DNA from: an uncultured Chloroflexia bacterium
Lineage (GTDB): Bacteria > Chloroflexota > Anaerolineae > Anaerolineales > Anaerolineaceae
Reading direction: 5' to 3'
DNA length: 32,000 nucleotides
Assembly (NCBI GenBank): GCA_963704755.1
Contig: OY969938.1
Coordinates: forward strand, 4,680,001-4,712,000
Positions 6,294 to 29,262 of this stretch are shown here, piece by piece. A model generated the notes under the pieces. The model searched no databases and was not told where the DNA came from. It saw only the letters and a program-made list of their open reading frames with translations. Positions within the stretch are counted from its first letter, which is position 1. The number at the start of each line of letters is the position of its first letter. The translations under genes were made by a program, and so were the position numbers.

Positions 6294-7388
6294 TTAGGGC
6301 AGCTTGATCGGGTTGATGATGTCTTGAGCGGTAACAAAGAACATCAAAACGAGCAATGCAATAAATCCAATCATGTGAACCAGGTTCTCGTACCTGGCAG
6401 GGATTCTTTTGTGAACGATAAGTTCAGGCAAGATGAACAGGATCCGGCCGCCGTCCAGGGCTGGGATAGGCAGTAAGTTCGTCAGTCCAAGCGCGATGGT
6501 GACAGCGATCATCAATTGCAAGGTCAGCAGATGGCCGGCAGGGTTGCTGGTGCTGGTGGATGAAGGTGTAGCTGTGTCGCTTTGGCGGGCCTGTGAGAAC
6601 ATATCGTACATACCGACCGGCCCAACTACTCGCGCATCTTGTCCTGAAATCTGGCCACTGATCAACTTACCCGGCATTTCCAAAGTCAGTTTGATTTGAT
6701 CGTAAGTGGACTGAAACGCCAGCGGGACGGTATCTACCCAGGGGCGGCTGACGATGGGGTTGGACATGCCAATCCCCAGGGCACCCTGGTCGGCAGGCGG
6801 GTTGACACGGGGCACGGTATTGACCGCTATAGTCTGGTCGCCGCGTTTTACCTGGATGGTGATCTGGTTACCCTTGTTTTCCTGAACGATGTTAACCAGC
6901 GTATCGGTATTATCGATTGGGGTCTGGTTGACCTGGGTGATCAGATCACCCACTTGTAAACCTGCCTGCGAGGCCGGCGAATCGGAAGCAACCTGGGTAA
7001 TGACCACTTTGCTGGCATCCGGTACACCAATGTTGGTAAAGAGAAAAACGAATAAGATCACGCCTGCCAGCAAATTCATAAACGGACCGGCCAGCAAAAC
7101 AGCGATACGCGCCCAGGGGGTTGCCTGTCCAAATCCGCCGGGAACAGCCGGGTCGGTTTCGCCGGACATGCGTACGAACGCACCGAACGGGATCCAGTTC
7201 AGGGTGACTTCGGTCTCACGAAAGTTGAACAACTTAACCAGACGCGGTGGATATCCAAAGCCGAATTCCTCTACTTTGATGCCTAATGATTTGGCAACGA
7301 TAAAGTGGCCGAACTCGTGGATAAAAAGCATTACCCCGAAAAACAGGATAAACTCGATTAGCGTTATGATATTCACTGAAAGCTCCAA
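6294..7388 (-). CDS. rseP: RIP site-2 metalloprotease, M50 family (RseP-like) with PDZ domain
   Basis: 364-aa ORF with HEFGHFIVA (HExxH in TM1), a central PDZ-like segment (SPASQAGLQVGDLI) and the C-terminal NLLPIPALDGGRI motif. Confidence 0.9.
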   Translation of the reverse strand: MELSVNIITLIEFILFFGVMLFIHEFGHFIVAKSLGIKVEEFGFGYPPRLVKLFNFRETEVTLNWIPFGAFVRMSGETDPAVPGGFGQATPWARIAVLLAGPFMNLLAGVILFVFLFTNIGVPDASKVVITQVASDSPASQAGLQVGDLITQVNQTPIDNTDTLVNIVQENKGNQITIQVKRGDQTIAVNTVPRVNPPADQGALGIGMSNPIVSRPWVDTVPLAFQSTYDQIKLTLEMPGKLISGQISGQDARVVGPVGMYDMFSQARQSDTATPSSTSTSNPAGHLLTLQLMIAVTIALGLTNLLPIPALDGGRILFILPELIVHKRIPARYENLVHMIGFIALLVLMFFVTAQDIINPIKLP

Positions 7389-7558
7389 AGGTCGAACAAT
7401 TATAATCGGCCTGCCCGACGATTTTTCCCATTACGATTTTATCGGGTCAGATTACTAATTTATGGAAATGCTTTGAGTCTGCACTTTGGCGGCTATTTCG
7501 CCTAACTCCGGACCCAAAACAACCAAACCGAATTTCACTATTTATTGTACCCACCTTG

Positions 7559-7587
7559 ATTATATCTTGATTAAAATCCGGTTGCAA
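7559..7587 (-). promoter_or_regulatory. Sigma-70-like promoter for the rseP operon
   Basis: Read on the minus strand: TTGCAA (7587-7582), 17-nt spacer, TATAAT (7564-7559). It lies about 170 nt upstream of the rseP start and just downstream of the mvaD stop. Confidence 0.45.
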
Positions 7588-7606
7588 AAGCCAGGCGAAA
7601 ATAAAA

Positions 7607-8575
7607 TCAAACCAGCCGGGCCGGGCCGGCCGGTGTGGTCTCCAGGATTTGAAGTACGCCAGGTATCTCGCTTACCAGCTTGCGTACAGCCGGGAGGGCC
7701 GACAACAGGCAGAGCAAATGCACATTCGGGCCGGCATCCAGGGTGTAGCAGACCGGGATATTGTTGTGCCGCCAGTGGGCAACTTGCTTGATAATCGCCA
7801 GCGATGCCGGCTCCCAATAGAATAGCGCCGGGGTAGATGTCATCATTACCGCGTGCATCAAATTGCTGTCCACCTCGACAATTTGGGCAAATGATTCAAA
7901 GTCGCGCTCCAGGATCGCTTTACGGCAAATTCCCAGGCGACGGGGCGTATCGGCCACGCGGGCAGGCTGGATGGGGCTGCTCCCGGCCAGGCGATGCCCG
8001 TCCGTCGAACCGGTTTTTTTGGGCTCGGCGGCAACCACGGCCACACAATCGGCCAGCTCCCAATGGTCAGCCTGGGCGATGCTGGAGGCGAAAGAGCTAT
8101 CGTCGGAGCTGCCGGGCAGCCATTCGACAAAGCCGCCCGGCACCGAGCGGCAGGCAGACCCGGAACCGCGGCGGGCCAGAGCGGAAAGCTGCCGTTCGCC
8201 CAGGTCCAGGCCGGCGGCTTTAGAGGCGGCCAGGGCCAGTGCGGCAAATGCTGCTGCTGAAGAGGCAATGCCAGCGCCCGTAGGAAAATTGTTGACCGAA
8301 TTGACCTGGGCGAAGGCTTTCAGACCGGCCAAATCGCGTACCAGATCCAGGAAGGCCGCGACCCGCGACCGGGCCTCGTCACCGGCCTCCACGCCGTTCA
8401 GAATCAGCCCATCGAATGAGGTGCTCTCGGAAAACGTGACGGTGGTGCGCGTTTCCAACCCGGCCAGGTTCATGGAAATCGAGCCGTTGGCCGGCAGGCG
8501 TAAGTGATCGTCGCGGTTGCCCCAATATTTGATGAATGCGATGTTAGGGTGAGCAACAGCAGTGGCGGTTGGCAC
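7607..8575 (-). CDS. mvaD: Diphosphomevalonate (or phosphomevalonate) decarboxylase, GHMP-kinase fold
   Basis: 322-aa ORF with a GTG start. Motifs are AHPNIAFIKYWGNRD, GLASS-type GIASSAAAFAALA and GSGSACRS, as in mevalonate-pathway decarboxylases. Confidence 0.85.
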   Translation of the reverse strand: MPTATAVAHPNIAFIKYWGNRDDHLRLPANGSISMNLAGLETRTTVTFSESTSFDGLILNGVEAGDEARSRVAAFLDLVRDLAGLKAFAQVNSVNNFPTGAGIASSAAAFAALALAASKAAGLDLGERQLSALARRGSGSACRSVPGGFVEWLPGSSDDSSFASSIAQADHWELADCVAVVAAEPKKTGSTDGHRLAGSSPIQPARVADTPRRLGICRKAILERDFESFAQIVEVDSNLMHAVMMTSTPALFYWEPASLAIIKQVAHWRHNNIPVCYTLDAGPNVHLLCLLSALPAVRKLVSEIPGVLQILETTPAGPARLV

Positions 8576-8843
8576 TAGGTTTTGATCCTTGTCATGGATA
8601 AAGCTTTTCGAGCAGCATCGAGGTTATCGCCGGGGGAGAATGCTTTACACGAATTATATTGGCCGGCAAACTGATTTTATTTTAAGGAAATATCCCCTTT
8701 AAAGAAGGCTCTTCCTGCGCGACCCAAGGTAGCTGCAGTCCATAATTATAGCAAAAATAACGGGGGTCCCTGGAATAAGAACACCTTTTGATCATTCCCC
8801 AAACGGAAAGTGAATGTGGATTAATGGGTCAAGAATTGCTTCG

Positions 8844-9050
8844 TTACCCCGCGACGACTCGGGTGGAGCGTATCAAGGCCTGCTCCATTTGTTCGATCTC
8901 TGCCGGAGATTGGATGGTATTAAATACATCCGAGTGCTGTTCGCGCACATGTTCCAATGCTTTTTGAGTGACCTCTTCTATCGTCTCACCTTTGACTACA
9001 AAGGGACAGTTTAAACCCATACTTTTACAGGAATATTTGATTAACATCAT
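8844..9050 (-). CDS. DUF1059 small protein
   Basis: 68-aa ORF. The pattern C.SMGLNCPFVVKGETIEEV...ALEHV.E.H matches the DUF1059 family. Confidence 0.7.
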   Translation of the reverse strand: MMLIKYSCKSMGLNCPFVVKGETIEEVTQKALEHVREQHSDVFNTIQSPAEIEQMEQALIRSTRVVAG

Positions 9051-9190
9051 TTCCTCATTGCGTGTTTCTATTTATGAACCCATGTACCCGCGAAACCCGA
9101 ATCTCGCAACGCGAGTGATTTTTTTATTGGGGTGGATCGTATACTCATCTTACCCCGTATTGGGGTTCTTTACAAACGAATTGGCCTTCC

Positions 9191-9219
9191 TTGACGTAGC
9201 GCATCTGGTTCGCTATGAT
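9191..9219 (+). promoter_or_regulatory. Sigma-70-like promoter
   Basis: TTGACG (9191-9196), exact 17-nt spacer, TATGAT (9214-9219), in non-coding DNA upstream of the 9375 ORF. Confidence 0.45.
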
Positions 9220-9225
9220 AAGGTT

Positions 9226-9317
9226 CAGGCGATGAGGCTCGCCGGAATATTAATCCAATTGCCTTGGTGCTGATGGCCTCTGTCCGGGTAGTTCTGCGGA
9301 CAGGGGCTTTTCTGTCG
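9226..9317 (+). ncRNA. Candidate ~90-nt small RNA or terminator-containing leader
   Basis: Bounded by the 9191-9219 promoter and the 9277-9317 intrinsic-terminator-like hairpin. It has an internal hairpin ggcga/tcgcc. I recognise no riboswitch class. Confidence 0.3.
9277..9317 (+). terminator. Intrinsic terminator-like hairpin
   Basis: cctctgtccg (9277-9286) pairs with cggacagggg (9298-9307), 10 bp including one G-U, with an 11-nt loop. It is followed by cttttctgtc. Confidence 0.5.
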
Positions 9318-9374
9318 GCCTATTTTTATCCTAAAAATTCAACCAAATAATGGAACGCTCGAGGTCTTGATTTT

Positions 9375-9818
9375 ATGTCTCCAATTAAACTCACTCCCGG
9401 CCAACAAAGGCATGTTTTTGCCACGCTGCTCTCTTACGAAAAAGCATTGCGCCTGGCAGAACAGTTACTTATGAATGAATCAGAAACGGGGATCTTGTAT
9501 GTGCGAAAAAGTGTTTTGAGCTCTGCACAGCGCCGATTGGCTGCCGATCGAATTGCCGATTTATTGGACGATTTGGCCGAATTTGTGGGTGAACTCGGCT
9601 TGCCGGCAACGGAAGAGCTCAGCGAAAGGACGATCGCGTCCTATCTGGGTGAAAGCTGGACCGGACTGGAGGATTGCCGGTCGAAGAGCCTGGCAAATTA
9701 TGGCAGGCTCACTGCACAGGATGCGCAGCGGATCGATCAGTCGATTGGGCATATGGCCCAATCGGCGCTCGAATTAAGCCAGTTGTTCACGATATCGCCG
9801 GGAGATTCGATAGAGTAG
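9375..9818 (+). CDS. Hypothetical helical protein
   Basis: 147-aa ORF with plausible coding composition and no family I recognise. It sits directly upstream of the chemosensory operon. Confidence 0.55.
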   Translation: MSPIKLTPGQQRHVFATLLSYEKALRLAEQLLMNESETGILYVRKSVLSSAQRRLAADRIADLLDDLAEFVGELGLPATEELSERTIASYLGESWTGLEDCRSKSLANYGRLTAQDAQRIDQSIGHMAQSALELSQLFTISPGDSIE

Positions 9819-9996
9819 GGAGAGGTTTAGAAAAGTTTGAAACTTGGGTATCGTTTTGTAAGGTGATTATATTTACCAAATTACTATTCATTAACCCATC
9901 AGATGGGTATAATAAATTTATAAAGTGGGCAAAAAATTTGGAAATCAGGTATGTTTTTTCCATTTAAAAGTATGGCAGGTTTTGAGAGGTACGTGC

Positions 9997-10491
9997 GTGG
10001 CTGAAGTAGACCGGTCTATCCAGATGTTCGTCGTTTTCTGGTTGCAGGAAGGAATTTATGGGTTGCCCCTGGAAAATGTTAGTGAGGTAGTTCGAATGGT
10101 GGCGATCACGAAAGTACCTAAAGCACCAGCCTGGCTGCCTGGGGTGATAAATGTCCGCGGGCGGGTTGTGCCGGTAGTCGATCTGCGGGCACGCCTGGGT
10201 ATGCGAGTGCTGGCGCCTGTACTGAACACCCCCATCATCGTCGTTCAGGTTAAAGAGCGCCGGGTCGGCCTGATCGTGGATCGAACAGATGAGGTCATCA
10301 CCTTAGTCCCCGATGCAATTACGCCACCGGACGAACTGACCAAAAAAGCCCGGCCGGTTAAATCAATTAGCCGCCAGGACGACCGGTTGATCCTGATCCT
10401 GGATTTGCCGCGGCTCACCGCCGGTACCGAAAAATTTAGTACCGAGGAGATGCCCAAGGAAAAACATGAACAGGCCGCTGCCAAAGTATGA
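9997..10491 (+). CDS. cheW: CheW-like coupling protein 1
   Basis: CheW signature ...FWLQEGIYGLPLENVSEVV...PGVINVRGRVVPVVDLRARLG. I prefer the GTG at 9997 (GAGAGG RBS 8 nt upstream) over the track start at 9925. ATG 10024 is an alternative. Confidence 0.85.
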   Translation: MAEVDRSIQMFVVFWLQEGIYGLPLENVSEVVRMVAITKVPKAPAWLPGVINVRGRVVPVVDLRARLGMRVLAPVLNTPIIVVQVKERRVGLIVDRTDEVITLVPDAITPPDELTKKARPVKSISRQDDRLILILDLPRLTAGTEKFSTEEMPKEKHEQAAAKV

Positions 10492-11161
10492 CCTAGACGA
10501 TGCGGAATTCTCACGTTTTTCCGGCCTTGTTCGAGCAAAAAGCGGCCTGGAAATCCCTGAAGTGCGCCGGCCAGATCTGGAGAAGGCAGTCGTCCAATCA
10601 ATGGCTGAACTATCCCTCTCGAAACCGGATGAATTATTTACCTATTTAATGACCGGGCCGGATGGTGCGCCGGTTTTAGAAAACCTGATCGCACGGATTA
10701 CCGTGGGCGAAACGCATTTTTTTCGCAATCATCCGCAGTTCGAAGCGTTGGAAAAACAGGTCTTACCTGAGTTGATCGAAAAACGGCGGCCGCTCAAGCG
10801 CTTGCGGATTTGGAGCGCGGGCTGTGCCAGCGGCGAGGAGCCTTACTCGCTGGCGATTTTGCTGAAAAGGTTGATTCCAGACCTGGCCGATTGGAACATC
10901 CTTATTCTGGCCACCGATATCAACCGCACAGCGTTGGAAAAAGCCCAAAAGGGGGATTTCGGCCCCTGGTCGTTTCGTGAAGTACCTCCGGAAGTCAAGG
11001 CGAATTATTTTAAATTCGATGGAAGTCGATACAAAATCAGTAACACGGTTCGCAGCATGGTGACGTTTGCTTACCTCAACCTGGTCGAGGATAACTATCC
11101 TTCCATGCTGACCAACACTCAGTTGATGGACCTGGTCCTATGTCGCAATGTCCTGATCTGA
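10466..11161 (+). CDS. cheR: CheR methyltransferase, N-terminal fragment (gene interrupted by a 1-nt frameshift at about 11160)
   Basis: CheR N-domain plus SAM-binding block RIWSAGCASGEEPYSLA. The ORF ends ...CRNVLI-TGA, inside the conserved CRNV(L/M)IYF motif. Confidence 0.85.
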   Translation: MNRPLPKYDLDDAEFSRFSGLVRAKSGLEIPEVRRPDLEKAVVQSMAELSLSKPDELFTYLMTGPDGAPVLENLIARITVGETHFFRNHPQFEALEKQVLPELIEKRRPLKRLRIWSAGCASGEEPYSLAILLKRLIPDLADWNILILATDINRTALEKAQKGDFGPWSFREVPPEVKANYFKFDGSRYKISNTVRSMVTFAYLNLVEDNYPSMLTNTQLMDLVLCRNVLI

Positions 11162-11177
11162 TTTTAATGAAGCGACC

Positions 11178-12011
11178 ATGCGGGTGGTGGTCGAGCGAAT
11201 GCATGCCGCCTTGAGCATTGGCGGGTGGCTGTTCGTCGGACACGCCGAGCCATCCCAGTCTATTTTTTACAAATTCCAGGTCCATAATTTTCCGGGTGCG
11301 ATTGTTTATCAGAAACCCGAGCATGAAAGCCAGGCACAGGCGCTGCCTCCGTTGCCCTTGGAATGGGCCAGCAAAACCTCAAAAGAAATGCGGGATGAAA
11401 CTTCCTCCCGACCCCTGGCGAATTCCCGAGCTCTGCCGGAAAAGCCCATCCAGGCGAAGCCAAAGCCGGCGAGCCAGGCGCCGGCGGCTAAGCCCCGGCC
11501 CCAACGATTACCTCCTCCCGCTGAACTGCTCGCTGCGGTAGCCCTTTTCGACGCAGGCCAGGTGGATGCTGCCTTGGCCAAACTGGCGAGCCAGGTCGAG
11601 GGATATCCGCAAAACGCCTGGCCGCCTTATTGGCTGGCCAAAATATATGCCAACCGGCTGGACCTGGAAAACGCCGAGCGTTGGATCGATATTGCTTTGG
11701 CCCGCGAACCATTGTTGGCGCCGGCTCACTACCTGCGTGGGTTGATCTTACAGGAGTTAGGCCGCCTGGAGCAGAGCCTGGAGGCACTGCGACGTTGTCT
11801 CTTTGCCGACCCGGAATTTTTATTGGGCTATTTCAGCCTGGCGGGGCTGTATGGGCGGCTATCCCAGCCTCAAAAAGCCTTGAAGGCGTTGATGAACCTG
11901 GAAGAGCTGCTGGCCGGGTATGACCGCGAAGCGGTTGTCGCGGAAGGGGATGGGATGACGGTTGGGCGCCTGTCCGAATTTGTGACTGCCCAAAAGGAGT
12001 TGCTGGAATAA
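11178..12011 (+). CDS. cheR: CheR C-terminal fragment plus Pro-rich linker plus TPR domain (continuation of 10466 ORF in the +1 frame)
   Basis: Homology in this frame already starts at 11160 (DFNEATMRVVVERMHAALSIGGWLFVGHAEP is the end of the CheR MTase fold). TPR-like repeats follow (AWPPYWLAKIY..., APAHYLRGLILQELGR..., LGYFSLAGLYGR...). Confidence 0.85.
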   Translation: MRVVVERMHAALSIGGWLFVGHAEPSQSIFYKFQVHNFPGAIVYQKPEHESQAQALPPLPLEWASKTSKEMRDETSSRPLANSRALPEKPIQAKPKPASQAPAAKPRPQRLPPPAELLAAVALFDAGQVDAALAKLASQVEGYPQNAWPPYWLAKIYANRLDLENAERWIDIALAREPLLAPAHYLRGLILQELGRLEQSLEALRRCLFADPEFLLGYFSLAGLYGRLSQPQKALKALMNLEELLAGYDREAVVAEGDGMTVGRLSEFVTAQKELLE

Positions 12012-12622
12012 TGGCCGACGAGAATCATCTTTCTTCCGGTGAATTGAAAATACTCGAAGAACGAGCGCGTTTATTGGCGCATGTTCCCCAGGCGGATGAT
12101 TCGGGAGAATATATCGAAGTGGTGGTCGTGGCGCTGGCTGGGGAAAGCTATGGTATTCCGATCGATTCGGTCGTAGAGATACAGCCATTAAGTACTCTGA
12201 CACCCCTGCCTGGTGTACCGGCTTATTGGGTAGGGTTGCTCAATTTACGCAGCCGGCTGCTGCCATTGCTGGACCTGCGGGCTTATTTGGGCTTACCGCC
12301 GTTTCCGTGGCGTGAAAGCGACCAGAGGAAAGAAAACGGGCCCCAAAAGGCCAATGGCAAAACCCAGCGGAAAGGCGAGCCAATTCTGGATGGCGAAATC
12401 ATCCTGGTGAGCCAGAACGGCAATCAAATCGGCTTGCTGGTCGATCGGGTAAGTGAAGTCCAAAAGCTGCCCCGTGAAAAGATTGGCCCTCCGTTGACCA
12501 GGCCCGCAGCGAGCGAACACAAGGTGACCGAAGGGTTGACGCCGGATTTATTGACTCTATTAGACCTGAACGAATTATTGAAGGATCCAGGTTTGATCGT
12601 ACAGAACGCTGGTGGATCGTAA
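12011..12622 (+). CDS. cheW: CheW-like coupling protein 2 (with ~35-aa basic insertion)
   Basis: CheW signature ALAGESYGIPIDSVVEI...PAYWVGLLNLRSRLLPLLDLRAYLG. The start ATG overlaps the cheR stop (TAATG). Confidence 0.85.
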   Translation: MADENHLSSGELKILEERARLLAHVPQADDSGEYIEVVVVALAGESYGIPIDSVVEIQPLSTLTPLPGVPAYWVGLLNLRSRLLPLLDLRAYLGLPPFPWRESDQRKENGPQKANGKTQRKGEPILDGEIILVSQNGNQIGLLVDRVSEVQKLPREKIGPPLTRPAASEHKVTEGLTPDLLTLLDLNELLKDPGLIVQNAGGS

Positions 12623-12660
12623 TCAGGAGATGATCCGATTTACCTACGAGGAGATCGACG

Positions 12661-14289
12661 ATGAACTTAATTAATAATATGAAGATCGGCGCCAAGCTTA
12701 TCGCAGGCTATCTTATAGTTTCCCTCATCGTAGTCGTCGTAGCGGCAATTGGTTACACAAGCGTACTGAATCTAAGCAATATCATTGTGGGTAATTACAA
12801 CAACAATGTGTTACCCATTGAATACGTGGGGACGGCCAGCAACGACATGTACCGCATCCGCGGAGATGTATATAAATTGATTCTTTTCCCGGACCAGGTC
12901 AGCGACGTCGAAACCGAGATCGATACTCTCAAAGCGGAAATCGATGACCGGGTTACAAAATTTCGCCAGGTAAACCTGACCCAGGATGAAGTGCAAAAAC
13001 TGGCTTCGTTCGACAGTGCCTGGGCAACTTACCAAAGCGAACTCGCCAAGGCCATTGCGTTGGTTAATGCCGGCAATAACCAGGCGGCGGTGACGGCGAT
13101 CCAGACCGGTGGCAATTTGTCCACTGCCAGGGACGTCGTTATTGCCCAATTAAGCGACTTGTCCGATCTGAATACCGGACAAATGGCTACCCGGCAGGCT
13201 TCAGCCCAGCAAACTTTTCTCCAGATCAGTAAGTTGTTGTTCGCGGCCGGGTTGATCGGTGTGCTTTTGGCCCTGTTTTTGGGGATCGGAATAAGCCGCA
13301 GTATTATTGGGCCGCTCCGGAAATGCGTGAAAATGATGGAGGATTTGTCCAAGGGCCATTTGAGCACGCACCTGGGGATGACCCGCCTGGATGAGATCGG
13401 GGTTTTGACCCGCGCAATGGACGATTTCGCCGAGGTTTTGCGTAAAATAGCCACGCAGACGCGCAAATCGGCCGCCAGTACCACGGCGGCGACGGCCGAG
13501 ATCCTGGCCGCGGTCAGCCAGCACACTGCCAGTGCGAACGAACAATCGGCGGCAATCAACGAGACGACCACCACAGTGGATGAAGTCCGCGCGGCCGCCG
13601 AGCAGACCGCCCAGAAGGCCAACGATGTGGCGCACGAATCGTTGGGGGCAGTCACGGTCAGTGAAAACGGACGGCAGGCAGTGGATGCCATCGTGACGGG
13701 GATGATCGAGATCCGCGAGAAGGTCCAGGCCATCGCCCAGGACATCCTGGCGCTTTCGGAACAGACTCAGCAGATCGGCGAAATCACCGCTACAGTCAAC
13801 GATATCGCCGACCAGTCCAATTTGCTGGCGTTGAACGCCACGATCGAGGCAGCCAAGGCGGGTGAGCAGGGCAAGGGCTTCGCGGTGGTGGCGACGGAAG
13901 TGCGTAACCTGGCGGACCAGTCCAAGCAAGCCACCACGCGGGTGCGGTCTATCCTGGGCGATATCCAGAAGGCGACCAACGCGGCGGTGCTGGCCACCGA
14001 ACAGGGCACCAAGGGTGTAGAAACAGGCATGAGCCTGGCTCAACAGGCCGGGAGCGTGATCAACCAGTTATCCGAGACGATCCGCGAGGCAGCTCAGGCG
14101 GCCCAGCAGATTGCCGCCTCGGCGCATCAACAGAATATTGGTATGGAGCAGATCGCCCAGGCGATGAAGGACATCAACCAGGCGACCGTGCAATTTGTGG
14201 CCGGGGCACGCCAGTCGCAGACGGCGGCCGAGAACCTGAATGTGATGGCCCAGGACCTACAAAAAACAGTCGAGTTCTATAAAGTGTAA
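12661..14289 (+). CDS. Methyl-accepting chemotaxis protein 1 (4HB sensor, HAMP, MCP signalling domain)
   Basis: 542 aa with a GAGGAG RBS. It has TM1, a periplasmic helical sensor, TM2, a HAMP domain ([18 protein letters not shown]...[15 protein letters not shown]) and the conserved hairpin tip [23 protein letters not shown]. Confidence 0.92.
13439..14252 (+). repeat. 814-bp direct repeat, copy A (3' module of MCP1)
   Basis: Base-by-base comparison with 15307-16120 (offset 1868) gives 8 mismatches, with 13554-14031 fully identical. Confidence 0.95.
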
Positions 14290-14408
14290 AAATGGGCAAC
14301 TACTCAGCTATCGCAAAATAAAAACAACCCTGATTTTCGAACCGGGCTGAGTAGAAAAAAATGAGATATAGAGGACAGCCCACGGATGCGGACAAGAGGA
14401 GGCAGGCT

Positions 14409-16157
14409 ATGAAATGGCTCAATAACATGAGAATGGGTGTCAAGCTGATCGGTGGATTCCTGGTCGTGGCTATTATCGTGTTTGTAGTCGGTTCGATCGG
14501 TTATGTCAGTGTCCAGAATCTGAGCAATATCATTGTCGGCAACTATAACAATAACGTACTACCCATTGAATACGTGGGCACAGCTAACAGTGACCTGTCC
14601 CGCATCCGCGGTGATTTGTACAAAATGGTTTTGTTTCCCGATCAAATCAGTGACATCGAGACGGAAATCAACTCGTTGACTACAGAAACCGAGAGCCAGA
14701 TCTCACTGTATAAACAGACCAGTCTGACACCGGAAGAAGTTCAAAAACTGGCTGCCTTCGATAATTCCTGGGCCAGTTTTAAGAACGAACTTGCGCAGGC
14801 CATAACCGTGATTAAATCAGGCGATAATCAGGCCGCCCTAGCCAATATCCAGACCGGGAGTGATTTATCCAATATACGCGACCAGGTTTCTGGGGTATTG
14901 GAGGATTTGTCTAACCTCAATATCAGCCTGATGAAAACCCGCCAATCGGTGGCCCAGCAAACTTTTATCCAGGTTGGCCGTACTTTGACAATTGTCGATT
15001 TTATCGGATTGCTGCTGGCATTGGGTCTGGGAATTGGTCTCAGCCGCAGCATAACCCGGCCGCTCGGCCAGGGCGTAAAGATGATGCAGGATTTGTCCCG
15101 CGGGCACCTGGGCACTCGCCTTAACATGACCCGCCTGGATGAAATCGGTGTTTTGGCGCGGGCCATGGATCAATTTGCCGAGGATTTGCAGAATATTGTC
15201 CTGGGAAACCTCAAAAAGATTGCGGCGGGAGACCTGACTTCTGAGATCAGCCTGAAAGACGCCCGAGACGAAATATCTCCGGCGTTGATCGCGATGAACA
15301 CCAACCTGCGTAAAATAGCCACGCAGACGCGCAAATCGGCCGCCAGTACCACGGCGGCGACGGCCGAGATCCTGGCCGCGGTTAGCCAGCACACTGCCAG
15401 TGCGAACGAACAATCGGCGGCGATCAACGAGACGACCACCACAGTGGATGAAGTCCGCGCGGCCGCCGAGCAGACCGCCCAGAAGGCCAACGATGTGGCG
15501 CACGAATCGTTGGGGGCAGTCACGGTCAGTGAAAACGGACGGCAGGCAGTGGATGCCATCGTGACGGGGATGATCGAGATCCGCGAGAAGGTCCAGGCCA
15601 TCGCCCAGGACATCCTGGCGCTTTCGGAACAGACTCAGCAGATCGGCGAAATCACCGCTACAGTCAACGATATCGCCGACCAGTCCAATTTGCTGGCGTT
15701 GAACGCCACGATCGAGGCAGCCAAGGCGGGTGAGCAGGGCAAGGGCTTCGCGGTGGTGGCGACGGAAGTGCGTAACCTGGCGGACCAGTCCAAGCAAGCC
15801 ACCACGCGGGTGCGGTCTATCCTGGGCGATATCCAGAAGGCGACCAACGCGGCGGTGCTGGCCACCGAACAGGGCACCAAGGGTGTAGAAACAGGCATGA
15901 CCCTGGCTCAGCAGGCCGGGAGCGTGATCAACCAGTTATCCGAGACGATCCGCGAGGCAGCTCAGGCGGCCCAGCAGATTGCCGCCTCGGCGCATCAACA
16001 GAATATTGGCATGGAGCAGATTGCGCAAGCGATGAAGGACATCAACCAGGCGACCGTGCAATTTGTGGCCGGGGCACGCCAGTCGCAGACGGCGGCCGAG
16101 AACCTGAATGTGATGGCCCAACGTTTACAGAAAACTGTCGATTTTTATCAAGTATAG
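14409..16157 (+). CDS. Methyl-accepting chemotaxis protein 2 (4HB sensor, HAMP plus extra linker, MCP signalling domain)
   Basis: I prefer the ATG at 14409 (AGGAGG RBS 7 nt upstream, [10 protein letters not shown]... parallels the MCP1 N-terminus) over the track start at 14361. Architecture matches MCP1 with about 40 extra residues after HAMP. Confidence 0.92.
15307..16120 (+). repeat. 814-bp direct repeat, copy B (3' module of MCP2)
   Basis: See copy A. Identical antisense ORFs in the track (13767-14030 and 15635-15898) reflect the same repeat. Confidence 0.95.
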
Positions 16158-16225
16158 AAATGATAAACGACCGGTAGTCCATAAGATACTTAGGGCACTG
16201 GTAGTCATTGGAAAGAGGTTTTCAA

Positions 16226-18754
16226 ATGAATGATTCGCTGAATGATGATCTGCAACGACAGCTAATGGCTTTGTTCGTCGCTGAAGCGCAGGAACACATC
16301 CAGACAATCAATCAAAACTTGCTGGCTCTGGAGGACCGGCCTGGCGAAGGAGCCTATTCTCAATTGTTGACGGATACACTGCGCGAAGCACACAGTTTGA
16401 AGGGTGCCGCCCGGGCCGTCAACCTTGCCGAAATCGAATCCATTGCGCACCAAATGGAAAGCATTTTTGTCGAGCTGCAAAACACCAAGCAGCCCATGGT
16501 TGCGGAAGGCTTCGATGTGTTGTACCAGGCATTGGATGCAATTGGGACACTGGTCAAAAAGGCCACCGGTGAAAATACCCCGGCCGTAAACGTGAATTCG
16601 CTAAGATCGAGTCTCGAAAAACTGCTGGAGGGCATCGAATCCGCGAAGGCAGCGCCTCCGGGGCGTATCTCCAACCGGCGGCCAGACGGCGACAAGGGCA
16701 GCAAACCAGCCCAGGGGTCGCAAACGGAGGAAAACGATCCCCCTTTTTCGGCCGCAACAGATAAACCGCTGAGATCCTCCACAAGCGGATCTGCCCGGGC
16801 AAAGTCCTCCCAAAAACTGCCCGATACACCGCCTCAGGAAAGCCATTCACAGGATTCTTTGCCAGTAAACCAAGCTCCACCCGGTCAAGAATCACCGCCT
16901 GTACCCGGCGAGGCCCGCCGGCAGGAAGAGACCGTGCGGCTGACCACGACCAAACTGGATACCCTGTTATCCCTGATGGGAGAGCTCCAGGTGACCCGGA
17001 TCGGTACGGGGCAAAGGTTAGTCGAATTGCTCGAGCTGCAGGAAAGCATTTCCTCCTGGGAAATCGAGTGGCGCAAGACCCGGCCGAGTTTCCGCCATAT
17101 TTTGATCACAACGGATACGAAGCTTTTTCAAAACGGCATTGCCCAGGAAGATAAATCGCGGGGAGTTGTGAACCCGGGAAGTTATCAGCCTATGCTGGAT
17201 TTCTTACAGTCTAACGAGAACCATTTACGCGCCCTGGGTGAAAAAGTTGCCGACCTGATCCAGATCTTCAAGGCCGACAGCCGGCGCATGGACCAGGTGG
17301 CGGCCGAGATGGAAGAAGAAATTCGCCAGACGCGCATGCTTCCGATTTCGACTGTGTTCAATACTTTTCCGCGCATGGTCCGCGACCTGGCCCGCGATAA
17401 AGGCAAATCGGTCGCCCTGGTGATCCAGGGCGGCGAAACGGATGTCGACCGATCCGTATTAGAGCAGATCAAAGATGCAATCCTGCACATCCTTCGCAAT
17501 TGTATTGACCACGGGATCGAGATGCCCGAGGAACGGGCCAAGGCGGGCAAGCCCAGCCAGGGGACCATCCATTTACGGGCAGCTCACCAGGGAGATAGCC
17601 TGGTCATTGAGGTCGCGGATGACGGGACCGGGATCGATTTAAGTACGCTCCGGGCTTCAGCGGTCAAGAAACGGCTGTTGACCGAGGAAGCAGCCGAAGG
17701 GTTGAGCGATCGAGATGCTTTATGGCTCATTTTCCATTCGGGCTTTTCAACCAGCCCGATCATTACCGACATTTCCGGGCGGGGCGTAGGGTTGGATATT
17801 GTCCGCGATCGGGTAGAGCATTTGCACGGCCTGATCGATGTGGAAAACGATCCGGGCAATGGCATCCGGTTTGTGATTTCGGTCCCGCTGACCGTGGCGA
17901 CCACATTGTGTTTGTTGGTCCAGGCCGGAAAACGCAGAATACCTGGGCATGACCCCCTGCATACCTTCGCGATCCCTATCAGCAATGTCGTGCGCCTGAT
18001 CCGCCTGGCGCCGGAAGATATCGGCTCGGTCGAAGGTCACCAGGCTATTCGCCTGAATGGTGAACCGGTGGCGTTGTGGCGCCTGGCGGATGTACTTGGC
18101 CTGGATTCACCTGTGGCCGATAAGAGCGATAGCATGAGGCCGGCGGTTGTGGTCGGTGTCGCAGAAAAAAGGATGGCTTTTTGGGTAGATGCGGTGATTG
18201 GTACCCAGGAAATGGTTATCAAGACCCTGCCCTGGCCCTTGATTCGCGTGCGCAACGCGGCCGGTGCTTCGATCTTGGGGAACGGGGAAGTCGTAGTGGT
18301 GCTCAACACGACAGATATGTTATCTTCGGCGGAACGCCATCAACCAGGCCTGGCAAGTGCCGTCGTTACGGCGGGGTTAAGCGAGGAGAAGGCGCCGGTG
18401 ATCATGGTTGCCGACAACTCGATCACGACCCGCACACTCGAGAAAAATATTCTGGAAGCATCCGGCTACCGGGTGTTATCTGCTGCAGACGGGTTGGACG
18501 CCTGGACGCAGATGCAGACCGAATATTGCGATCTGCTCGTCTCGGATGTGGTCATGCCACGCCTGGATGGGTTTGGCCTGACTGAAAAATTACGCACGGA
18601 TGAGCGTTATAAACAATTGCCTATAGTTTTGGTGACATCCCTGGACCGGCCCGAGGACCGTGAACGAGGTGTCCAGGCCGGTGCAGACGCCTACATTGTC
18701 AAAAGTGCTTTTGACCAGGAGAAATTGCTGGATACGATTCGCAGATTAATTTGA
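16226..18754 (+). CDS. cheA: Hybrid CheA histidine kinase (Hpt, low-complexity linker, long dimerisation region, HATPase, CheW-like, C-terminal REC)
   Basis: Hpt motif LREAHSLKGAARAV, dimerisation motif VRLTTTKLDTLLSLMGEL, N-box HILRNCIDHGIE, G-boxes DDGTGID and GRGVGLD. The REC domain has LLVSDVVMP, LVTS and IVKS. ATG 16226 has an AAGAGG RBS; the track start at 16208 is a TTG. Confidence 0.92.
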   Translation: MNDSLNDDLQRQLMALFVAEAQEHIQTINQNLLALEDRPGEGAYSQLLTDTLREAHSLKGAARAVNLAEIESIAHQMESIFVELQNTKQPMVAEGFDVLYQALDAIGTLVKKATGENTPAVNVNSLRSSLEKLLEGIESAKAAPPGRISNRRPDGDKGSKPAQGSQTEENDPPFSAATDKPLRSSTSGSARAKSSQKLPDTPPQESHSQDSLPVNQAPPGQESPPVPGEARRQEETVRLTTTKLDTLLSLMGELQVTRIGTGQRLVELLELQESISSWEIEWRKTRPSFRHILITTDTKLFQNGIAQEDKSRGVVNPGSYQPMLDFLQSNENHLRALGEKVADLIQIFKADSRRMDQVAAEMEEEIRQTRMLPISTVFNTFPRMVRDLARDKGKSVALVIQGGETDVDRSVLEQIKDAILHILRNCIDHGIEMPEERAKAGKPSQGTIHLRAAHQGDSLVIEVADDGTGIDLSTLRASAVKKRLLTEEAAEGLSDRDALWLIFHSGFSTSPIITDISGRGVGLDIVRDRVEHLHGLIDVENDPGNGIRFVISVPLTVATTLCLLVQAGKRRIPGHDPLHTFAIPISNVVRLIRLAPEDIGSVEGHQAIRLNGEPVALWRLADVLGLDSPVADKSDSMRPAVVVGVAEKRMAFWVDAVIGTQEMVIKTLPWPLIRVRNAAGASILGNGEVVVVLNTTDMLSSAERHQPGLASAVVTAGLSEEKAPVIMVADNSITTRTLEKNILEASGYRVLSAADGLDAWTQMQTEYCDLLVSDVVMPRLDGFGLTEKLRTDERYKQLPIVLVTSLDRPEDRERGVQAGADAYIVKSAFDQEKLLDTIRRLI

Positions 18755-18766
18755 CAAGGATTCAAA

Positions 18767-19810
18767 ATGATCCGAGTGCTGATTGTGGAAGATTCACCAA
18801 CTGTTAGCTTGTTGCTTAAATCGATCCTTGATTCCGATCCTGAGATTTCTGTAATCGCCACGGCTAAGGATGGAGAAGAGGGTTTGCGCAAGACCCTGTC
18901 CCTAAACCCGGATCTTGTCACTATGGATATTCACATGCCCGGGATGGATGGCTACGAAACAACCCGGCGGATCATGGCCCAGGCGCCGAAACCGATCGTT
19001 ATCGTCACCGGGAGTATCAACCAACGAGACGTCAAATCATCCTTTCAGGCGCTGGAGGCCGGGGCGCTGGCGGTGATCGAAAAACCATCCGGTCCAGGCG
19101 ATATCCACTTCAAGGAAGTGGCGAATGAGTTTGTCAGGACAGTCAAGTTGATGGCTGACGTAAAAGTCGTCGGCCGGCGGACGACAGCCAGAGTACAAAG
19201 GGCTTCCGTGCCGGTGGTTAAACCCGGCGGACAAATCGAGCTTATCGCAATTGGCGCTTCCACCGGTGGCCCGGCTGCCCTTTTTACGGTTTTGAGTGGG
19301 CTGCCGATGAACTTTCCGCTGCCGATCCTCATCGTTCAGCATATCTCGGTTGGCTTTGACGCCGGCCTGACAGAATGGCTCTCGTTGGCCACCCACCGAA
19401 ATGTGGTCCTGGGTCAAAATAATTCACCACTGGCGCCTGGCCAGATTGTGATCGCGCCGCAGGGAAAACACATGGGCGTAAATGAGGCCAGGCGGATTTT
19501 GCTAAATTCACAGACTGCTCCGATCGGCTCATTCAGGCCATCGGCGACCTACCTTTTTCAATCGGTCGCCGAAACATTTGGACCGCGTGCTGCGGGAGTG
19601 ATTTTGACCGGTATGGGCAGTGATGGAGCGGCCGGGTTAGCCGCTTTCCATCAAGCAGGTGGTTTTGTCATCGCGCAAGATGAGGCATCTTGTGTGGTAT
19701 ACGGAATGCCCGCGGCCGCCGTAGCGGCCGGGGCCGTAGATCAAATTCTTCCGTTAGAACGTATCGGGGTGGCATTGACTGCCCTACTTAAAATGGAGGA
19801 AAAGCCATAA
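18767..19810 (+). CDS. cheB: Protein-glutamate methylesterase CheB (REC plus methylesterase)
   Basis: REC domain (VLIVEDSPTV...VTMDIHMPGMDG) and a catalytic domain with GASTGGP (Ser), VQH (His) and GMGSDGA (Asp). Confidence 0.92.
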   Translation: MIRVLIVEDSPTVSLLLKSILDSDPEISVIATAKDGEEGLRKTLSLNPDLVTMDIHMPGMDGYETTRRIMAQAPKPIVIVTGSINQRDVKSSFQALEAGALAVIEKPSGPGDIHFKEVANEFVRTVKLMADVKVVGRRTTARVQRASVPVVKPGGQIELIAIGASTGGPAALFTVLSGLPMNFPLPILIVQHISVGFDAGLTEWLSLATHRNVVLGQNNSPLAPGQIVIAPQGKHMGVNEARRILLNSQTAPIGSFRPSATYLFQSVAETFGPRAAGVILTGMGSDGAAGLAAFHQAGGFVIAQDEASCVVYGMPAAAVAAGAVDQILPLERIGVALTALLKMEEKP

Positions 19811-22686
19811 TGGTTACGAGAGTTCTCGTGGTTGACGATAGTCCCACTCAATCTCTGCGCACAAAATTAACTTTGGAAACAGTCGGATATATCATTACCG
19901 AAGCAAACAACGGCAAGACTGCATTGGATATCGCTCTTCGAGAGCGGCCGGATGTCATTCTTTCAGATATCCTGATGCCCGAAATGGACGGCTTCGAATT
20001 ATGCCATTTAATCCGCACAAATCCGGACCTGCGCCAGATCCCGGTGATATTGCAAACAGCCTCTTATCGGGCCAAGGAGGACCGCGAATTTGGCCTGGAT
20101 ATTGGCGCAGATGCATTTATCCCTAAAGGCGCTTCGGCCGAGGATCTTTCCAATCTGATCGAAAATGTCATCGCCCAAAGCTGGGACCGGCAAAAAATGA
20201 TCGACGATAAAGCCGAAGAGTCCCGGCCCTTCGATGCACTGCATGCCCAAAGGATGCTTTTCCGTTTGCTCGAAGAGACGGCCAAGTTGGAGCAAGCCAA
20301 TGCCGCGATCAAAGCGGAGCGCAACCGGGCCCAAAAATACCTGGATGTGGCTTCGGTGATGATGATTGCGTTTGACCAGGAAAATAAAGTCACCATGATC
20401 AACCCGCGGGGCTGCCAGATTTTAGGCGTGGCGGCGCAAGAGGTCTTGAACATGGATTGGATCGAATCCTTTGTCCCGCTTGACCAGCAAGCCGAGGTCA
20501 GGGCGATCCACGAGCGGATTTTGCGCAATAACGATAAGGAGAGCGAATATTTCGAGTATTCGGTGCTGACCTCATCCGGTGAAGAAAGGTTGATCGCCTG
20601 GCATAATACCGTTTTGACCGACGATGAAGGTTACATTTCTGGCATTTTGAGTTCAGGCGAAGATATCACCGACCGTAAGTTCGCCGAAATAAAAATTAGA
20701 GAATCCGAGGAAAAATATCACTCCCTGTTCGAAAACGTGCCGGTAGGTGTTTACCGAGTCGCGACGGACGGCAGATTTCTGGCGGCCAACCCCGGCTTAT
20801 ACCAGATGTTGGGATATTCCTCCGAAGCGGAGCTGCAGAAAGTACCATTTTATGATCTGTTTTACGATCAACAGGATAAAAACTCCTTCGCGCAATATTT
20901 ACAGCGCGGTGTAGGCGTCCAGGATACGGAACTGCGCCTGCGGCACAAGCAAGGCCAACTGGTGATTGCCCTCGATAATGCCAAATCCGTTCGTGGGTCG
21001 CACGATGCCATTCTTTATTACGAAGGCACACTCACCGATATTTCCCGGCTCAAGCAAGCCGAAGCGGAACTGGCCGGCCTTTATCAAACCGAGCAGCAGC
21101 GGGTGAAGCGCTTATCCACTTTGCACAAGATCAGTGGGTTTTTGGCGGGCATTCACAGCCAACAAGAAGTCATGGAAATTGTGGCCGAGCAATCCCGTAA
21201 CCTGGTCAACTGCCCGGTGTGCCTGGTGCTAAAGGATGTACCGGAGAAGAAAGAGGCTTTGGTAGTAGCGCAGTCAGGTTCGCCCGAGCGAATGGCTATC
21301 GGCCGGCGTGTCCCCTTGATCCAGCCGATTTTTCGCCAGATCGTCGAAAGCGGCCAGCCCCTGTTGGTCAACGATATCGACCTCGAGACCCCGGAACTGC
21401 GCCAACTCAATCTGCTTCCCGAGGTTCGTTCTATTCAGGCCTACCCGATCGCGCAAGAAGGCCAGATCTTAGGGTTTATTGTCCAAGGCAGTTCTATTGC
21501 CCAGGCGCCGGCGGAAGGCGATGTGACCTCGATGGAGCTGTTAGCCGAACGGGCGGCTGCCGCGCTGGACAATGCACGTCTGTTCGAGGAAATCAATAGC
21601 AGCTTGCAGCGTCTGGCTTCCTTACGCTCGATTGACCAGGCGATCACCAGCAGCCTGGATATCAATTTCACGTTAGGGATTTTGCTCGACCAGGTCATTA
21701 ACCAGTTGAATGTCCATGGCGCCGATATATTGCTTTTGGACCAGGGTTCGGCCAGTTTCCGGTATGGGACCGGGCGAGGTTTCACCATTCCTGTTTCGCC
21801 GCAAGTCCTGGTGGGTGTCGGTAACAGTTACGCGGGACGGGCCGTGCTGGAACGACGCACGATCCAGGTGCTGAACCTGGCCAGCCAGGCGGTTGAATTC
21901 CAAAAACCGGCTCACTTTATCAAGGAAGGATTCGTCTCGCTGGTGTGCACACCATTGATTGCCAAAGGCCAGGTCAAAGGAGTGTTGGAGGTCTTGCATC
22001 GCGAGCCGCTCCAGCCAGTCCCGGACTGGATTTCTTTTTTGGAAACCCTGGCCGGACAGGCCGCCATTGCCATCGATAACGCCGAGCTGTTCACTAATTT
22101 GCAGCGTTCCAACGCCGATCTTTCCCTGGCTTATGACGCCACCATCCAGGGCTGGTCGGATGCGCTGGATTTACGCGACAAGGAGACCGAAGGCCATACC
22201 CAGCGGGTGACCGAATTGACTTTGAAATTGGCTGAATTGATGGGCGTAAACGATAAAGATATGGTCCATATGCGGCGCGGATGTTTATTGCACGACATCG
22301 GCAAAATGGGCATCCCGGATAATATTTTGCTCAAGCCTGGCTCATTGAGCGATGAAGAATGGGTGATTATGCGCAAACATCCCGTGTTTGCCTACGATCT
22401 GATCTCGCCCATTCTTTATTTACGCCCGGCCTTGGATATCCCGTACTGCCACCACGAGAAATGGGATGGCAGCGGCTACCCGCGTGGTTTGAAGGGTGAC
22501 CAGATTCCTTTACCGGCACGGATTTTTGCCGTCGTGGATGTTTGGGACGCTTTGACCTCCGACCGCCCTTACCGGTCGGCCTGGTCGCACGAGAAAACCC
22601 TGGCTCACATTCGGGAAGGTTCTGGCAGCCATTTCGACCCGGCGGTCGTCAGCGCTTTTATGAAGCTGATCGCGGTATACGAATAA
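19810..22686 (+). CDS. Response regulator REC-PAS-PAS-GAF-GAF-HD-GYP (predicted c-di-GMP phosphodiesterase)
   Basis: 958 aa; the ATG overlaps the cheB stop (TAATG). REC has VVDDS, LSDILMPEMDG and IPKG. Two PAS-like blocks end in DITDRK and DISRLK, and two GAF-like blocks end in DNARLFEE and DNAELFTNL. The HD-GYP domain has HTQRV, LLHDIGKMGIP and HHEKWDGSGYPRGL. Confidence 0.9.
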   Translation: MVTRVLVVDDSPTQSLRTKLTLETVGYIITEANNGKTALDIALRERPDVILSDILMPEMDGFELCHLIRTNPDLRQIPVILQTASYRAKEDREFGLDIGADAFIPKGASAEDLSNLIENVIAQSWDRQKMIDDKAEESRPFDALHAQRMLFRLLEETAKLEQANAAIKAERNRAQKYLDVASVMMIAFDQENKVTMINPRGCQILGVAAQEVLNMDWIESFVPLDQQAEVRAIHERILRNNDKESEYFEYSVLTSSGEERLIAWHNTVLTDDEGYISGILSSGEDITDRKFAEIKIRESEEKYHSLFENVPVGVYRVATDGRFLAANPGLYQMLGYSSEAELQKVPFYDLFYDQQDKNSFAQYLQRGVGVQDTELRLRHKQGQLVIALDNAKSVRGSHDAILYYEGTLTDISRLKQAEAELAGLYQTEQQRVKRLSTLHKISGFLAGIHSQQEVMEIVAEQSRNLVNCPVCLVLKDVPEKKEALVVAQSGSPERMAIGRRVPLIQPIFRQIVESGQPLLVNDIDLETPELRQLNLLPEVRSIQAYPIAQEGQILGFIVQGSSIAQAPAEGDVTSMELLAERAAAALDNARLFEEINSSLQRLASLRSIDQAITSSLDINFTLGILLDQVINQLNVHGADILLLDQGSASFRYGTGRGFTIPVSPQVLVGVGNSYAGRAVLERRTIQVLNLASQAVEFQKPAHFIKEGFVSLVCTPLIAKGQVKGVLEVLHREPLQPVPDWISFLETLAGQAAIAIDNAELFTNLQRSNADLSLAYDATIQGWSDALDLRDKETEGHTQRVTELTLKLAELMGVNDKDMVHMRRGCLLHDIGKMGIPDNILLKPGSLSDEEWVIMRKHPVFAYDLISPILYLRPALDIPYCHHEKWDGSGYPRGLKGDQIPLPARIFAVVDVWDALTSDRPYRSAWSHEKTLAHIREGSGSHFDPAVVSAFMKLIAVYE

Positions 22687-27274: not shown

Positions 27275-27314
27275 ACGTGAATTCCATTATGGAAATAAAA
27301 GGTCAAAGGCTGGA

Positions 27315-28226: not shown

Positions 28227-28303
28227 CATGATGAGCCCTCACATTTCCGGGCAACGCCGTTTCGTTCGAAAAAACCGTTGAATTGTTCGAGGAGAATGAA
28301 AAA

Positions 28304-28972: not shown

Positions 28973-29058
28973 ACACTCCACCGGGTGAGACAAGACTACA
29001 CCAGCGAGGGTATTCGTGAAAGGAGAGAAAGCGTATAGTTTGATTGTGCAAAAGCGGT

Positions 29059-29252: not shown

Positions 29253-29262
29253 AGGAGAATTC

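Follow-up and report, generated by a model that had tools for sequence, protein, structure and literature searches.

The window analysed here is a stretch of 32,000 nucleotides (nt) from contig OY969938.1 of an uncultured Chloroflexota bacterium belonging to the Anaerolineae. Its forward strand carries a chemosensory (che) gene cluster at positions 9997-22686, in the order cheW, cheR-TPR, cheW, mcp, mcp, cheA-REC, cheB and a gene for an output protein with the domain architecture REC-PAS-PAS-GAF-GAF-HD-GYP (Table 1). All eight co-directional genes had strong Pfam matches in a search of the large open reading frames (ORFs). The same eight genes had been proposed in an earlier interpretation that used the letters of the window only (hereafter the sequence-only reading), and both the Pfam domains and the junction coordinates agree with that proposal. 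We suggest that the cluster probably encodes a Wsp-like chemosensory pathway of the alternative cellular function (ACF) class, found in Anaerolineae-type Chloroflexota, whose dedicated output is a phosphodiesterase of cyclic di-GMP (c-di-GMP).

The first cheW gene and cheR overlap by 26 nt (10466-10491). TAATG stop/start overlaps join cheR to the second cheW (12009-12013) and cheB to the output gene (19808-19812), while the remaining gaps measure 38, 71, 68 (counted to the cheA ATG at 16226) and 12 nt. These overlaps and short gaps are as first described, except that a 119-nt gap listed in the sequence-only reading was not found. Its placement of the first cheW start at 9997 agrees with the N-termini of homologues, with the 'MAEVD' N-terminus from this GTG aligning with the start of the cheW homologue in a related record (L001). 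A receiver-domain scan of the window revealed four receiver domains, located in CheA, CheB, the output protein and a NarL-type regulator at 28283, and no stand-alone CheY. Pfam searches found no CheZ, CheC, CheD or CheX among all large ORFs of the window, and no flagellar or pilus domain in any of its large flanking ORFs. The lack of these genes from the window, as originally noted, is thus borne out by both searches.

The output protein is a response regulator in which Pfam places the receiver at amino acids (aa) 5-117, the PAS domains at 178-290 and 301-412, the GAF domains at 450-588 and 621-756, and the HD_5/HD-GYP domain at 783-946 (E=6e-37). Its gene is preceded by GGAGG about 10 nt upstream of the start. 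In the receiver, D10, D53 and K106 are invariant across orthologues, whereas either D or E occurs at position 9 and either T or S at position 83. The receiver is connected to the first PAS domain by a conserved helical linker (aa ~140-175).

We mapped the residues of the HD-GYP domain onto its best solved homologue, PmGH, using the ligand list in PMC4159591. The eight metal ligands of PmGH (E185, H189, H221, D222, H250, H276, H277 and D305) correspond to E792, H796, H828, D829, H857, H881, H882 and D910. The catalytic residues D183 and K225 correspond to D790 and K832, the structural D308 to D913 and the substrate contact R314 to R919, while the GYP motif G284-Y285-P286 is found at G889-Y890-P891. 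Every one of these residues is invariant in all seven orthologues. Therefore, the domain is intact, as it had appeared to be in the sequence-only reading; none of the eight metal ligands, the catalytic Asp and Lys or the GYP motif has been lost relative to PmGH.

We next consider how the output gene is linked to the che genes in other genomes. Seven related records were recovered (L001, L002, L003, L085, L086, L087 and L095), encoding six distinct output proteins (those of L085 and L086 are the same) that are 52-62% identical to the one in the window. In each of these seven records, cheA and cheB immediately precede the output gene, and the full order cheW-cheR-cheW-mcp-cheA-cheB-output was found in all five relatives with enough flanking sequence. 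In all eight loci, meaning the window and the seven related records, cheB and the output gene share start/stop overlaps of 1-29 nt, and CheA is the sole kinase in the module, with no HisKA kinase inside it. The surroundings of the module fall into three neighbourhoods. L003 and L085 share the mevalonate diphosphate decarboxylase (MVD) and M50 peptidase genes of the window, L001 and L002 have hydrogenase and SpoIIE genes upstream and a GGDEF gene downstream, and in L087 the module is preceded by genes for an ATPase and a transposase-like protein and followed by those for a HisKA_3 kinase and a LuxR-type regulator. Since the same gene order occurs in three different neighbourhoods, the module moves and persists as a unit. 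This is our main argument that the HD-GYP protein is the output of the pathway. The sequence-only reading had proposed comparing the adjacency of cheB and the REC-HD-GYP gene in relatives, and this adjacency is kept in every orthologous locus recovered.

The wider searches were of uneven reach. The contig scan used generic receiver-domain peptides, which retrieved mostly unrelated REC or REC-HD-GYP loci and listed no close relatives. Among the matches listed were about 33 REC-HD-GYP loci, where a full che cluster was found in the Anaerolineae relatives only, although this is a biased sample that gives no estimate of frequency. A metagenome scan with the family-specific REC-PAS linker found one further locus only.

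Other genes occupy the position after cheB in two sister clusters. The gene order of the window is complete in a metagenome-assembled genome (MAG) of Thermodesulfobacteriota (L056, 3299-15106), where cheB is followed by a REC-PAS-HisKA-HATPase gene and then a REC-HDOD gene. It is partial in an uncultured bacterium (L040, 503-7776), where a REC-GAF-HK-REC3-Hpt gene follows cheB. The output slot after cheB thus appears to be swappable, which fits the modularity of ACF outputs described in PMC3447774.

Two loci of different construction were also observed. In L088 (GCA_036732725.1, DAINBV010000006.1, 1-12000), a REC-PAS-GAF-HD-GYP gene directly follows a differently built che cluster that encodes a STAS protein, a CheA without REC, a CheW, a short CheR, an ODP-like metallo-beta-lactamase-fold protein, an MCP, a CheR, a CheB and a stand-alone CheY. 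The HD-GYP domain of L088 is 66% identical to that of the window. L088 may represent a second, independent che-to-HD-GYP linkage, and may hint that chemosensory control of HD-GYP proteins is a recurrent, overlooked design. The other is in a Treponema sp. MAG (L026, 700-11000), where MCP, CheB and CheR genes have two HD-GYP genes within about 8 kb, and one of these two encodes a receiver as well.

CheA is a hybrid kinase with a C-terminal receiver and, according to Pfam, no P2/CheY-binding domain. Its domains are ordered as Hpt (His56, in the motif HSLKG), a low-complexity linker, a dimerisation region of about 150 aa, HATPase_c, CheW/P5 and the C-terminal REC. A tblastn search with the CheA core against 72,556 plasmid and megaplasmid records gave matches in 597, and two of the best-scoring records were opened. 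Of these two, the best-scoring annotated homologue is WspE on a Ralstonia solanacearum megaplasmid (L090), while the other record, from Burkholderia, has no annotation at the CheA match. CheA and the Ralstonia WspE are collinear end to end, with 34% identity over 843 columns (E=9e-115). The Ralstonia wsp operon encodes an MCP, a CheW, a 471-aa CheR, a second CheW, the hybrid kinase, a CheB and a 'diguanylate cyclase response regulator' (REC-GGDEF). Its cheB is frameshifted and unannotated, and was found by tblastn. CheA, CheB, CheR, MCP and the first CheW of the window match this locus with E-values of 2e-9 to 9e-115, while the second CheW falls short of E=1e-5. NCBIfam contains no Wsp- or ACF-specific models, and all of its matches to the cluster were generic.

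CheR-TPR proteins and multidomain response regulators are hallmarks of ACF pathways (PMC3447774). The cluster has features that this survey quotes for the ACF class: it encodes a multidomain response regulator, flagellar and pilus genes are absent next to it, and it lacks CheY, CheZ, CheC, CheD and CheX. Chloroflexi with CheR-TPR were reported in the same survey to lack a prototypical CheR and flagellar genes. Judged by its sequence, CheA does not appear to be a flagellar-type kinase. The sequence-only reading had named a flagellar-type CheA with a CheY and flagellar genes nearby as evidence that would speak against it, and this combination was not found in the window. In CheB, the catalytic Ser (GASTGG), His and Asp align with those of solved CheB structures (PDB 6YMZ, E=2e-58, and 1A2O, E=1e-55).

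The two receptors share the same 40-heptad signalling domain but differ in their extracytoplasmic four-helix-bundle sensors. In mcp1, the hairpin-tip Glu is residue 402, with 140 residues per arm between the end of HAMP (261) and the C-terminus (542). Having 140 residues on each side of the tip identifies mcp1 as a 40-heptad receptor without a tail. WspA belongs to the 40-heptad class as well. The two receptors are 75% identical overall (BLASTP), but their last 282 residues differ at only four positions, and the 3' 852 nt of mcp1 (13438-14289) and mcp2 (15306-16157), which span the entire signalling domain, are 99-100% identical. The other differences are located in the diverged sensor half of mcp2 and in a 40-residue insert after its HAMP domain. 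These near-identical 3' halves went unmentioned in the sequence-only reading. Only one mcp is present in the clusters of the relatives. Together, these features suggest either that the gene was recently duplicated in tandem or that gene conversion is ongoing and keeps one signalling module behind two sensors.

Table 1. Genes and features of the che cluster, in window coordinates.
Feature	Position	Strand	Evidence and remarks
cheW1	9997..10491	+	Pfam CheW E=6e-36; longest ORF from GTG 9925, probable start GTG 9997
cheR 5' fragment, CheR_N and S-adenosylmethionine (SAM)-binding methyltransferase domain	10466..11161	+	Pfam CheR E=3e-43
Extra G frameshifting cheR	11160	+	Alignment with L001, L002 and L003
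cheR 3' fragment, methyltransferase end and TPR repeats	11161..12011	+	Listed ORF 11178-12011
cheW2	12011..12622	+	Pfam CheW E=1e-26; start overlaps cheR stop (TAATG)
mcp1, transmembrane, 4HB_MCP_1-HAMP-MCPsignal, 40-heptad	12661..14289	+	Pfam
mcp2, mcp1 paralogue, 4HB_MCP_1-HAMP-MCPsignal	14361..16157	+	Pfam
cheA-REC hybrid	16208/16226..18754	+	Pfam Hpt-HATPase_c-CheW-REC; alignment with four orthologues
cheB methylesterase, REC and CheB_methylest	18767..19810	+	Pfam E=2e-60
Output response regulator, REC-PAS-PAS-GAF-GAF-HD-GYP, 958 aa	19810..22686	+	Pfam, orthologue alignment
Output receiver	19822..20160	+	D9/D10 pair, D53 (codon 19966-19968), T83, K106
HD-GYP catalytic domain	22156..22647	+	Best solved homologue PmGH, PDB 4MCW, E=1e-47

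Homology to other chemosensory systems suggests how the pathway may work. The receptors, both CheW proteins and the CheA-REC hybrid would form a complex, and the state of the receptors would set CheA autophosphorylation at His56 of the Hpt domain. The phosphoryl group would pass to CheB for adaptation, together with CheR-TPR where cheR is intact. It would also pass to Asp53 of the output receiver, as suggested by the strictly conserved and translationally overlapping linkage. Like those of other hybrid CheAs, the C-terminal receiver of CheA probably serves as a sink or relay for phosphate. Phosphorylation of the output receiver would be transmitted by the helical linker to the PAS/GAF region and change the activity of the HD-GYP domain on c-di-GMP. 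Cytoplasmic signals may enter through the PAS and GAF modules, and the output protein could then be a coincidence detector, combining receptor input by phosphorylation with cytoplasmic ligands at PAS/GAF. The net effect would be that chemoreceptor input controls the degradation of c-di-GMP, where Wsp/WspR controls its synthesis. The idea of a Wsp-like che cluster with an HD-GYP output, on which the sequence-only reading was built, is supported by the CheA class, the integrity of the residues and the conserved adjacency. It had further called the system a 'sign-inverted' Wsp. The predicted output chemistry is indeed opposite to that of WspR, but a claim about regulatory sign exceeds the evidence.

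Several points weigh against this interpretation. We infer the phosphotransfer from CheA to the output receiver, the substrate and the direction of regulation. DVU2933 of D. vulgaris, the sole protein of REC-PAS-HD-GYP architecture to be studied, is inactive at full length without phosphorylation (Galperin and Chou). The second-best PDB match of the HD-GYP domain (E=5e-43) is V-cGAP3 (5Z7C), which is specific for 3'3'-cyclic GMP-AMP (3'3'-cGAMP), so that c-di-GMP is a putative substrate. The longest CheA dimerisation regions have been found in type IV pilus (Tfp) class CheAs of Chloroflexota and Cyanobacteria (PMC10782961). Finally, cheR is interrupted in this assembly, and this break, together with an unusual Asn in the CheA receiver, may mean that the adaptation or sink branches are impaired in this organism.

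The interruption of cheR results from a one-base insertion, 'ATCT[G]ATTT' in the window against 'ATCT-ATTT' in three of three homologous loci (L001, L002 and L003). The 5' fragment ends at profile position 147 of 195 with a premature TGA at 11159-11161. In the other frame (frame 2), the remainder reads '..FNEATMRVVVERMH..' and continues into the TPR repeats, with TPR_1, TPR_2 and TPR_8 matches at aa 181-214 of the 3' ORF in Pfam. Deletion of the G at 11160 restores a CheR-TPR of 514 aa, comparable to the 500-527 aa of its homologues. The cheR-TPR of the sequence-only reading is therefore not a single intact gene in this assembly: the CheR and C-terminal TPR halves are both present and collinear with intact homologues, but the extra G splits them into two ORFs. 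A programmed +1 frameshift at AUC-UGA is unlikely and was rejected. The P-site tRNA cannot re-pair there, the product would carry Asp where 'LIYF' has its conserved Tyr, and the extra base is absent from the homologues. Therefore, the extra G is either a recent mutation or an assembly error. In L002, the gene calls split cheA (6402-8899) into one gene for Hpt alone and a second for HATPase-CheW-REC. Such indel-type breaks of che genes in more than one long-contig assembly are consistent with an assembly error behind the cheR frameshift of the window.

The second anomaly is found in the receiver of CheA at 18416-18418, where the window encodes Asn ('ADNS') and four of four orthologues encode Asp ('ADDS'/'VDDS') at the position equivalent to CheY D13. 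This substitution could weaken phosphorylation of CheA's own receiver. Together, the two anomalies raise the possibility, which we consider unlikely though the strongest of the alternatives, that the che-to-HD-GYP module is genuine but is decaying or has been rewired in this organism. In that case, methylation-dependent adaptation would be lost through the cheR frameshift and the phosphate sink through the D-to-N change, leaving the pathway locked or non-adapting. Against this, all other genes are intact, the output protein retains all of its catalytic residues, and sequencing error could account for a one-base indel in a single-contig assembly. Private substitutions at sites where the others agree range from 14 to 40 per CheA, and the CheA of the window is, together with that of L003, at the lower end of this range (14). 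General decay of the che genes in the window was rejected, as there is no excess of private substitutions at otherwise conserved sites.

A different question is whether the output protein is a target of CheA at all. It could be co-transcribed with the che genes and phosphorylated by an unlinked histidine kinase, with the receiver of CheA or a CheY elsewhere as the real output. Four distant homologues with the same architecture as the output protein (26-35% identity) bear on this question. None of them is found in a che cluster. Three follow classical HisKA kinases, while in the fourth case the preceding genes are a single-REC gene and one without annotation that is truncated at the end of the contig. 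Furthermore, Anaerolinea thermophila has an F1 flagellar-type CheA, which shows that members of the class can carry other che systems (PMC10782961 supplement). Conversely, the linkage with its 1-29-nt overlaps is strict in eight of eight loci across the three neighbourhoods, no HisKA kinase is found inside the module at any of them, and the window contains no other candidate output regulator. We thus consider an unlinked kinase improbable. Since the distant homologues lie outside che clusters, the che linkage is specific to this clade, which suggests that an RpfX-type two-component regulator was recruited into the che operon.

It is similarly doubtful that the HD-GYP domain acts on another cyclic dinucleotide, for example 3'3'-cGAMP, or that the output protein is mainly a binding or adaptor protein. 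The E-values of V-cGAP3 and PmGH (5e-43 and 1e-47) are not far apart, and RpfG of Lysobacter is an adaptor independently of catalysis (PMC10333796). However, the domain retains all catalytic and substrate-contacting residues of PmGH, a c-di-GMP enzyme, and most of the tested HD-GYP proteins with the full set of residues hydrolyse c-di-GMP (Galperin and Chou). In addition, a HisKA_7TM-PAS-GGDEF gene lies immediately downstream of, and convergent to, the HD-GYP gene in two relatives (L001, 12911-14863; L002, 12891-14858). These two loci thus place a likely maker of c-di-GMP beside its likely breaker, which favours c-di-GMP as the substrate.

We keep as a minor rival, because very long dimerisation domains like the ~150-aa region seen here are reported in Tfp-class CheAs of Chloroflexota and CheA-REC hybrids are known in both the Tfp and ACF classes, a Tfp-class system that steers type IV pili or gliding motility and hydrolyses c-di-GMP only in a side branch, but it is very unlikely given that neither the window nor the flanks (+/-10 kb) in five relatives contain pilus genes or PatA/PilG-type regulators, that CheR-TPR, two CheWs, CheB and a multidomain regulator match ACF (PMC3447774), that the closest annotated CheA among the opened records is WspE, and that ACF CheAs of Chloroflexus also have the Hpt-long P3-HATPase-CheW-REC arrangement, with dimerisation regions of 110 aa (PMC10782961 supplement).

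The cluster is flanked upstream by genes for a deoxynucleoside kinase, a major facilitator superfamily transporter, an acyltransferase, peptidases, a HEAT-repeat protein and MVD, and downstream by genes for a P-type ATPase, a HisKA_3/NarL pair and a molybdopterin oxidoreductase. Across the window, there is no sign of an island-like break in GC content. A promoter consensus scan was uninformative, with nine promoter-like sites where 10.1 were expected, as was a terminator scan, which found weak intragenic hairpins only. The intergenic stretch between MVD and cheW (8576-9925) is about 1.35 kb long in the window, compared with about 250 nt in the syntenic L003 and L085. It contains an ORF of 147 aa on the forward strand (9375-9818) with no Pfam match, and one of 68 aa on the reverse strand (8844-9050) that resembles, by eye, small DUF1059-type proteins. 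Downstream, 25181-31668 holds a row of genes for a GAF-HisKA_3 kinase, a DmsC-like membrane anchor subunit, a NarL/LuxR-type regulator and a molybdopterin oxidoreductase with a twin-arginine translocation (TAT) signal. The position of the reductase anchor gene between the HisKA_3 kinase and its regulator is unusual.

Returning to the proposed c-di-GMP-degrading output, the Wsp system is the textbook example of a chemotaxis-like pathway redirected to the control of a second messenger, and it does so only by making c-di-GMP. If our interpretation is true, receptor arrays, with their gain and adaptation, can drive the removal of the messenger too. The pathway would also provide a natural cognate kinase for an HD-GYP response regulator; to our knowledge, the control of these regulators by phosphorylation is poorly understood. 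It would give a handle on c-di-GMP signalling in the Chloroflexota, which are rich in HD-GYP genes and on which we know of almost no experimental work. Finally, it would be a compact example of output-module swapping in ACF che clusters. The value of the system rests mainly on the experiments that it makes possible.

How, then, does this cluster compare with known systems? All Wsp parts upstream of the output have a counterpart here: WspA (MCP), WspB/WspD (CheW), WspC (CheR-TPR), WspE (CheA-REC) and WspF (CheB). The likeness extends to the 4HB-type MCP, the two CheW-like proteins around CheR-TPR, the CheA-REC without P2 and a terminal receiver-effector related to c-di-GMP, and the cheW-cheR-cheW sub-order is identical in the Ralstonia wsp operon. 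Conversely, the Wsp output WspR is a REC-GGDEF protein for synthesis, whereas REC-PAS-PAS-GAF-GAF-HD-GYP contains no GGDEF and would act in hydrolysis. The MCP gene comes first in wspA-B-C-D-E-F-R, but after the second cheW in the window and its relatives, and in this genome it is duplicated. The host is a member of the Chloroflexota and not a proteobacterium, and identities to the Ralstonia wsp proteins are low (27-43%). Since the cluster has neither the REC-GGDEF output nor the MCP-first order, we consider it Wsp-like but not a Wsp system.

The output protein itself resembles RpfG and RpfX in having an N-terminal receiver with an intact pocket and a C-terminal HD-GYP domain, with PAS/GAF domains in between as in RpfX (Galperin and Chou). 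Unlike the known members (RpfC/RpfG of Xanthomonas, DVU2933), which are paired with classical sensor kinases, the proteins of this clade are encoded in a che operon. The Galperin and Chou census of HD-GYP architectures makes no mention of chemotaxis, CheA or CheY. PmGH, a GAF-HD-GYP protein of Persephonella marina whose trinuclear-iron ligands are all conserved here, has no receiver or PAS domains and no che linkage. We see an even chance that this clade recruited a multi-sensor phosphodiesterase of the RpfX type as the output of a Wsp-like array, in which case it would be the first chemosensory pathway known to degrade c-di-GMP.

Full-text literature searches, whose coverage excluded most subscription papers, found no characterised Che-to-HD-GYP pathway. 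This agrees with the sequence-only reading, which knew of no experimentally characterised Che pathway with this output, but a REC-HDc regulator in a che cluster had already been catalogued in 2012. In that survey (Munoz-Martinez et al. 2012, PMC3447774), clusters with CheR-TPR carry multidomain regulators whose outputs include GGDEF, EAL and GGDEF-EAL. A single 'REC - HDc metal dependent phosphohydrolase' output, from Desulfatibacillum alkenivorans, was grouped with phosphatases. Unlike the output protein described here, it has no PAS/GAF domains, was not read as a c-di-GMP enzyme and came with no conservation analysis, and the Chloroflexi surveyed there had single-domain regulators only. The nearest experimental link found between a chemoreceptor and a regulator of the HD-GYP family is that of the orphan MCP PA2573 and PA2572 in P. 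aeruginosa (PMC3411652). It differs in that PA2572 has a degenerate YN-GYP domain, the MCP interacts directly with REC, and there is no dedicated CheA, CheW, CheB and CheR operon. A 2022 review assigns the chemosensory systems that modulate c-di-GMP to the ACF (Wsp) or Tfp classes. Control of c-di-GMP by ACF chemosensory pathways is a known category, to which the HD-GYP output is an added variant.

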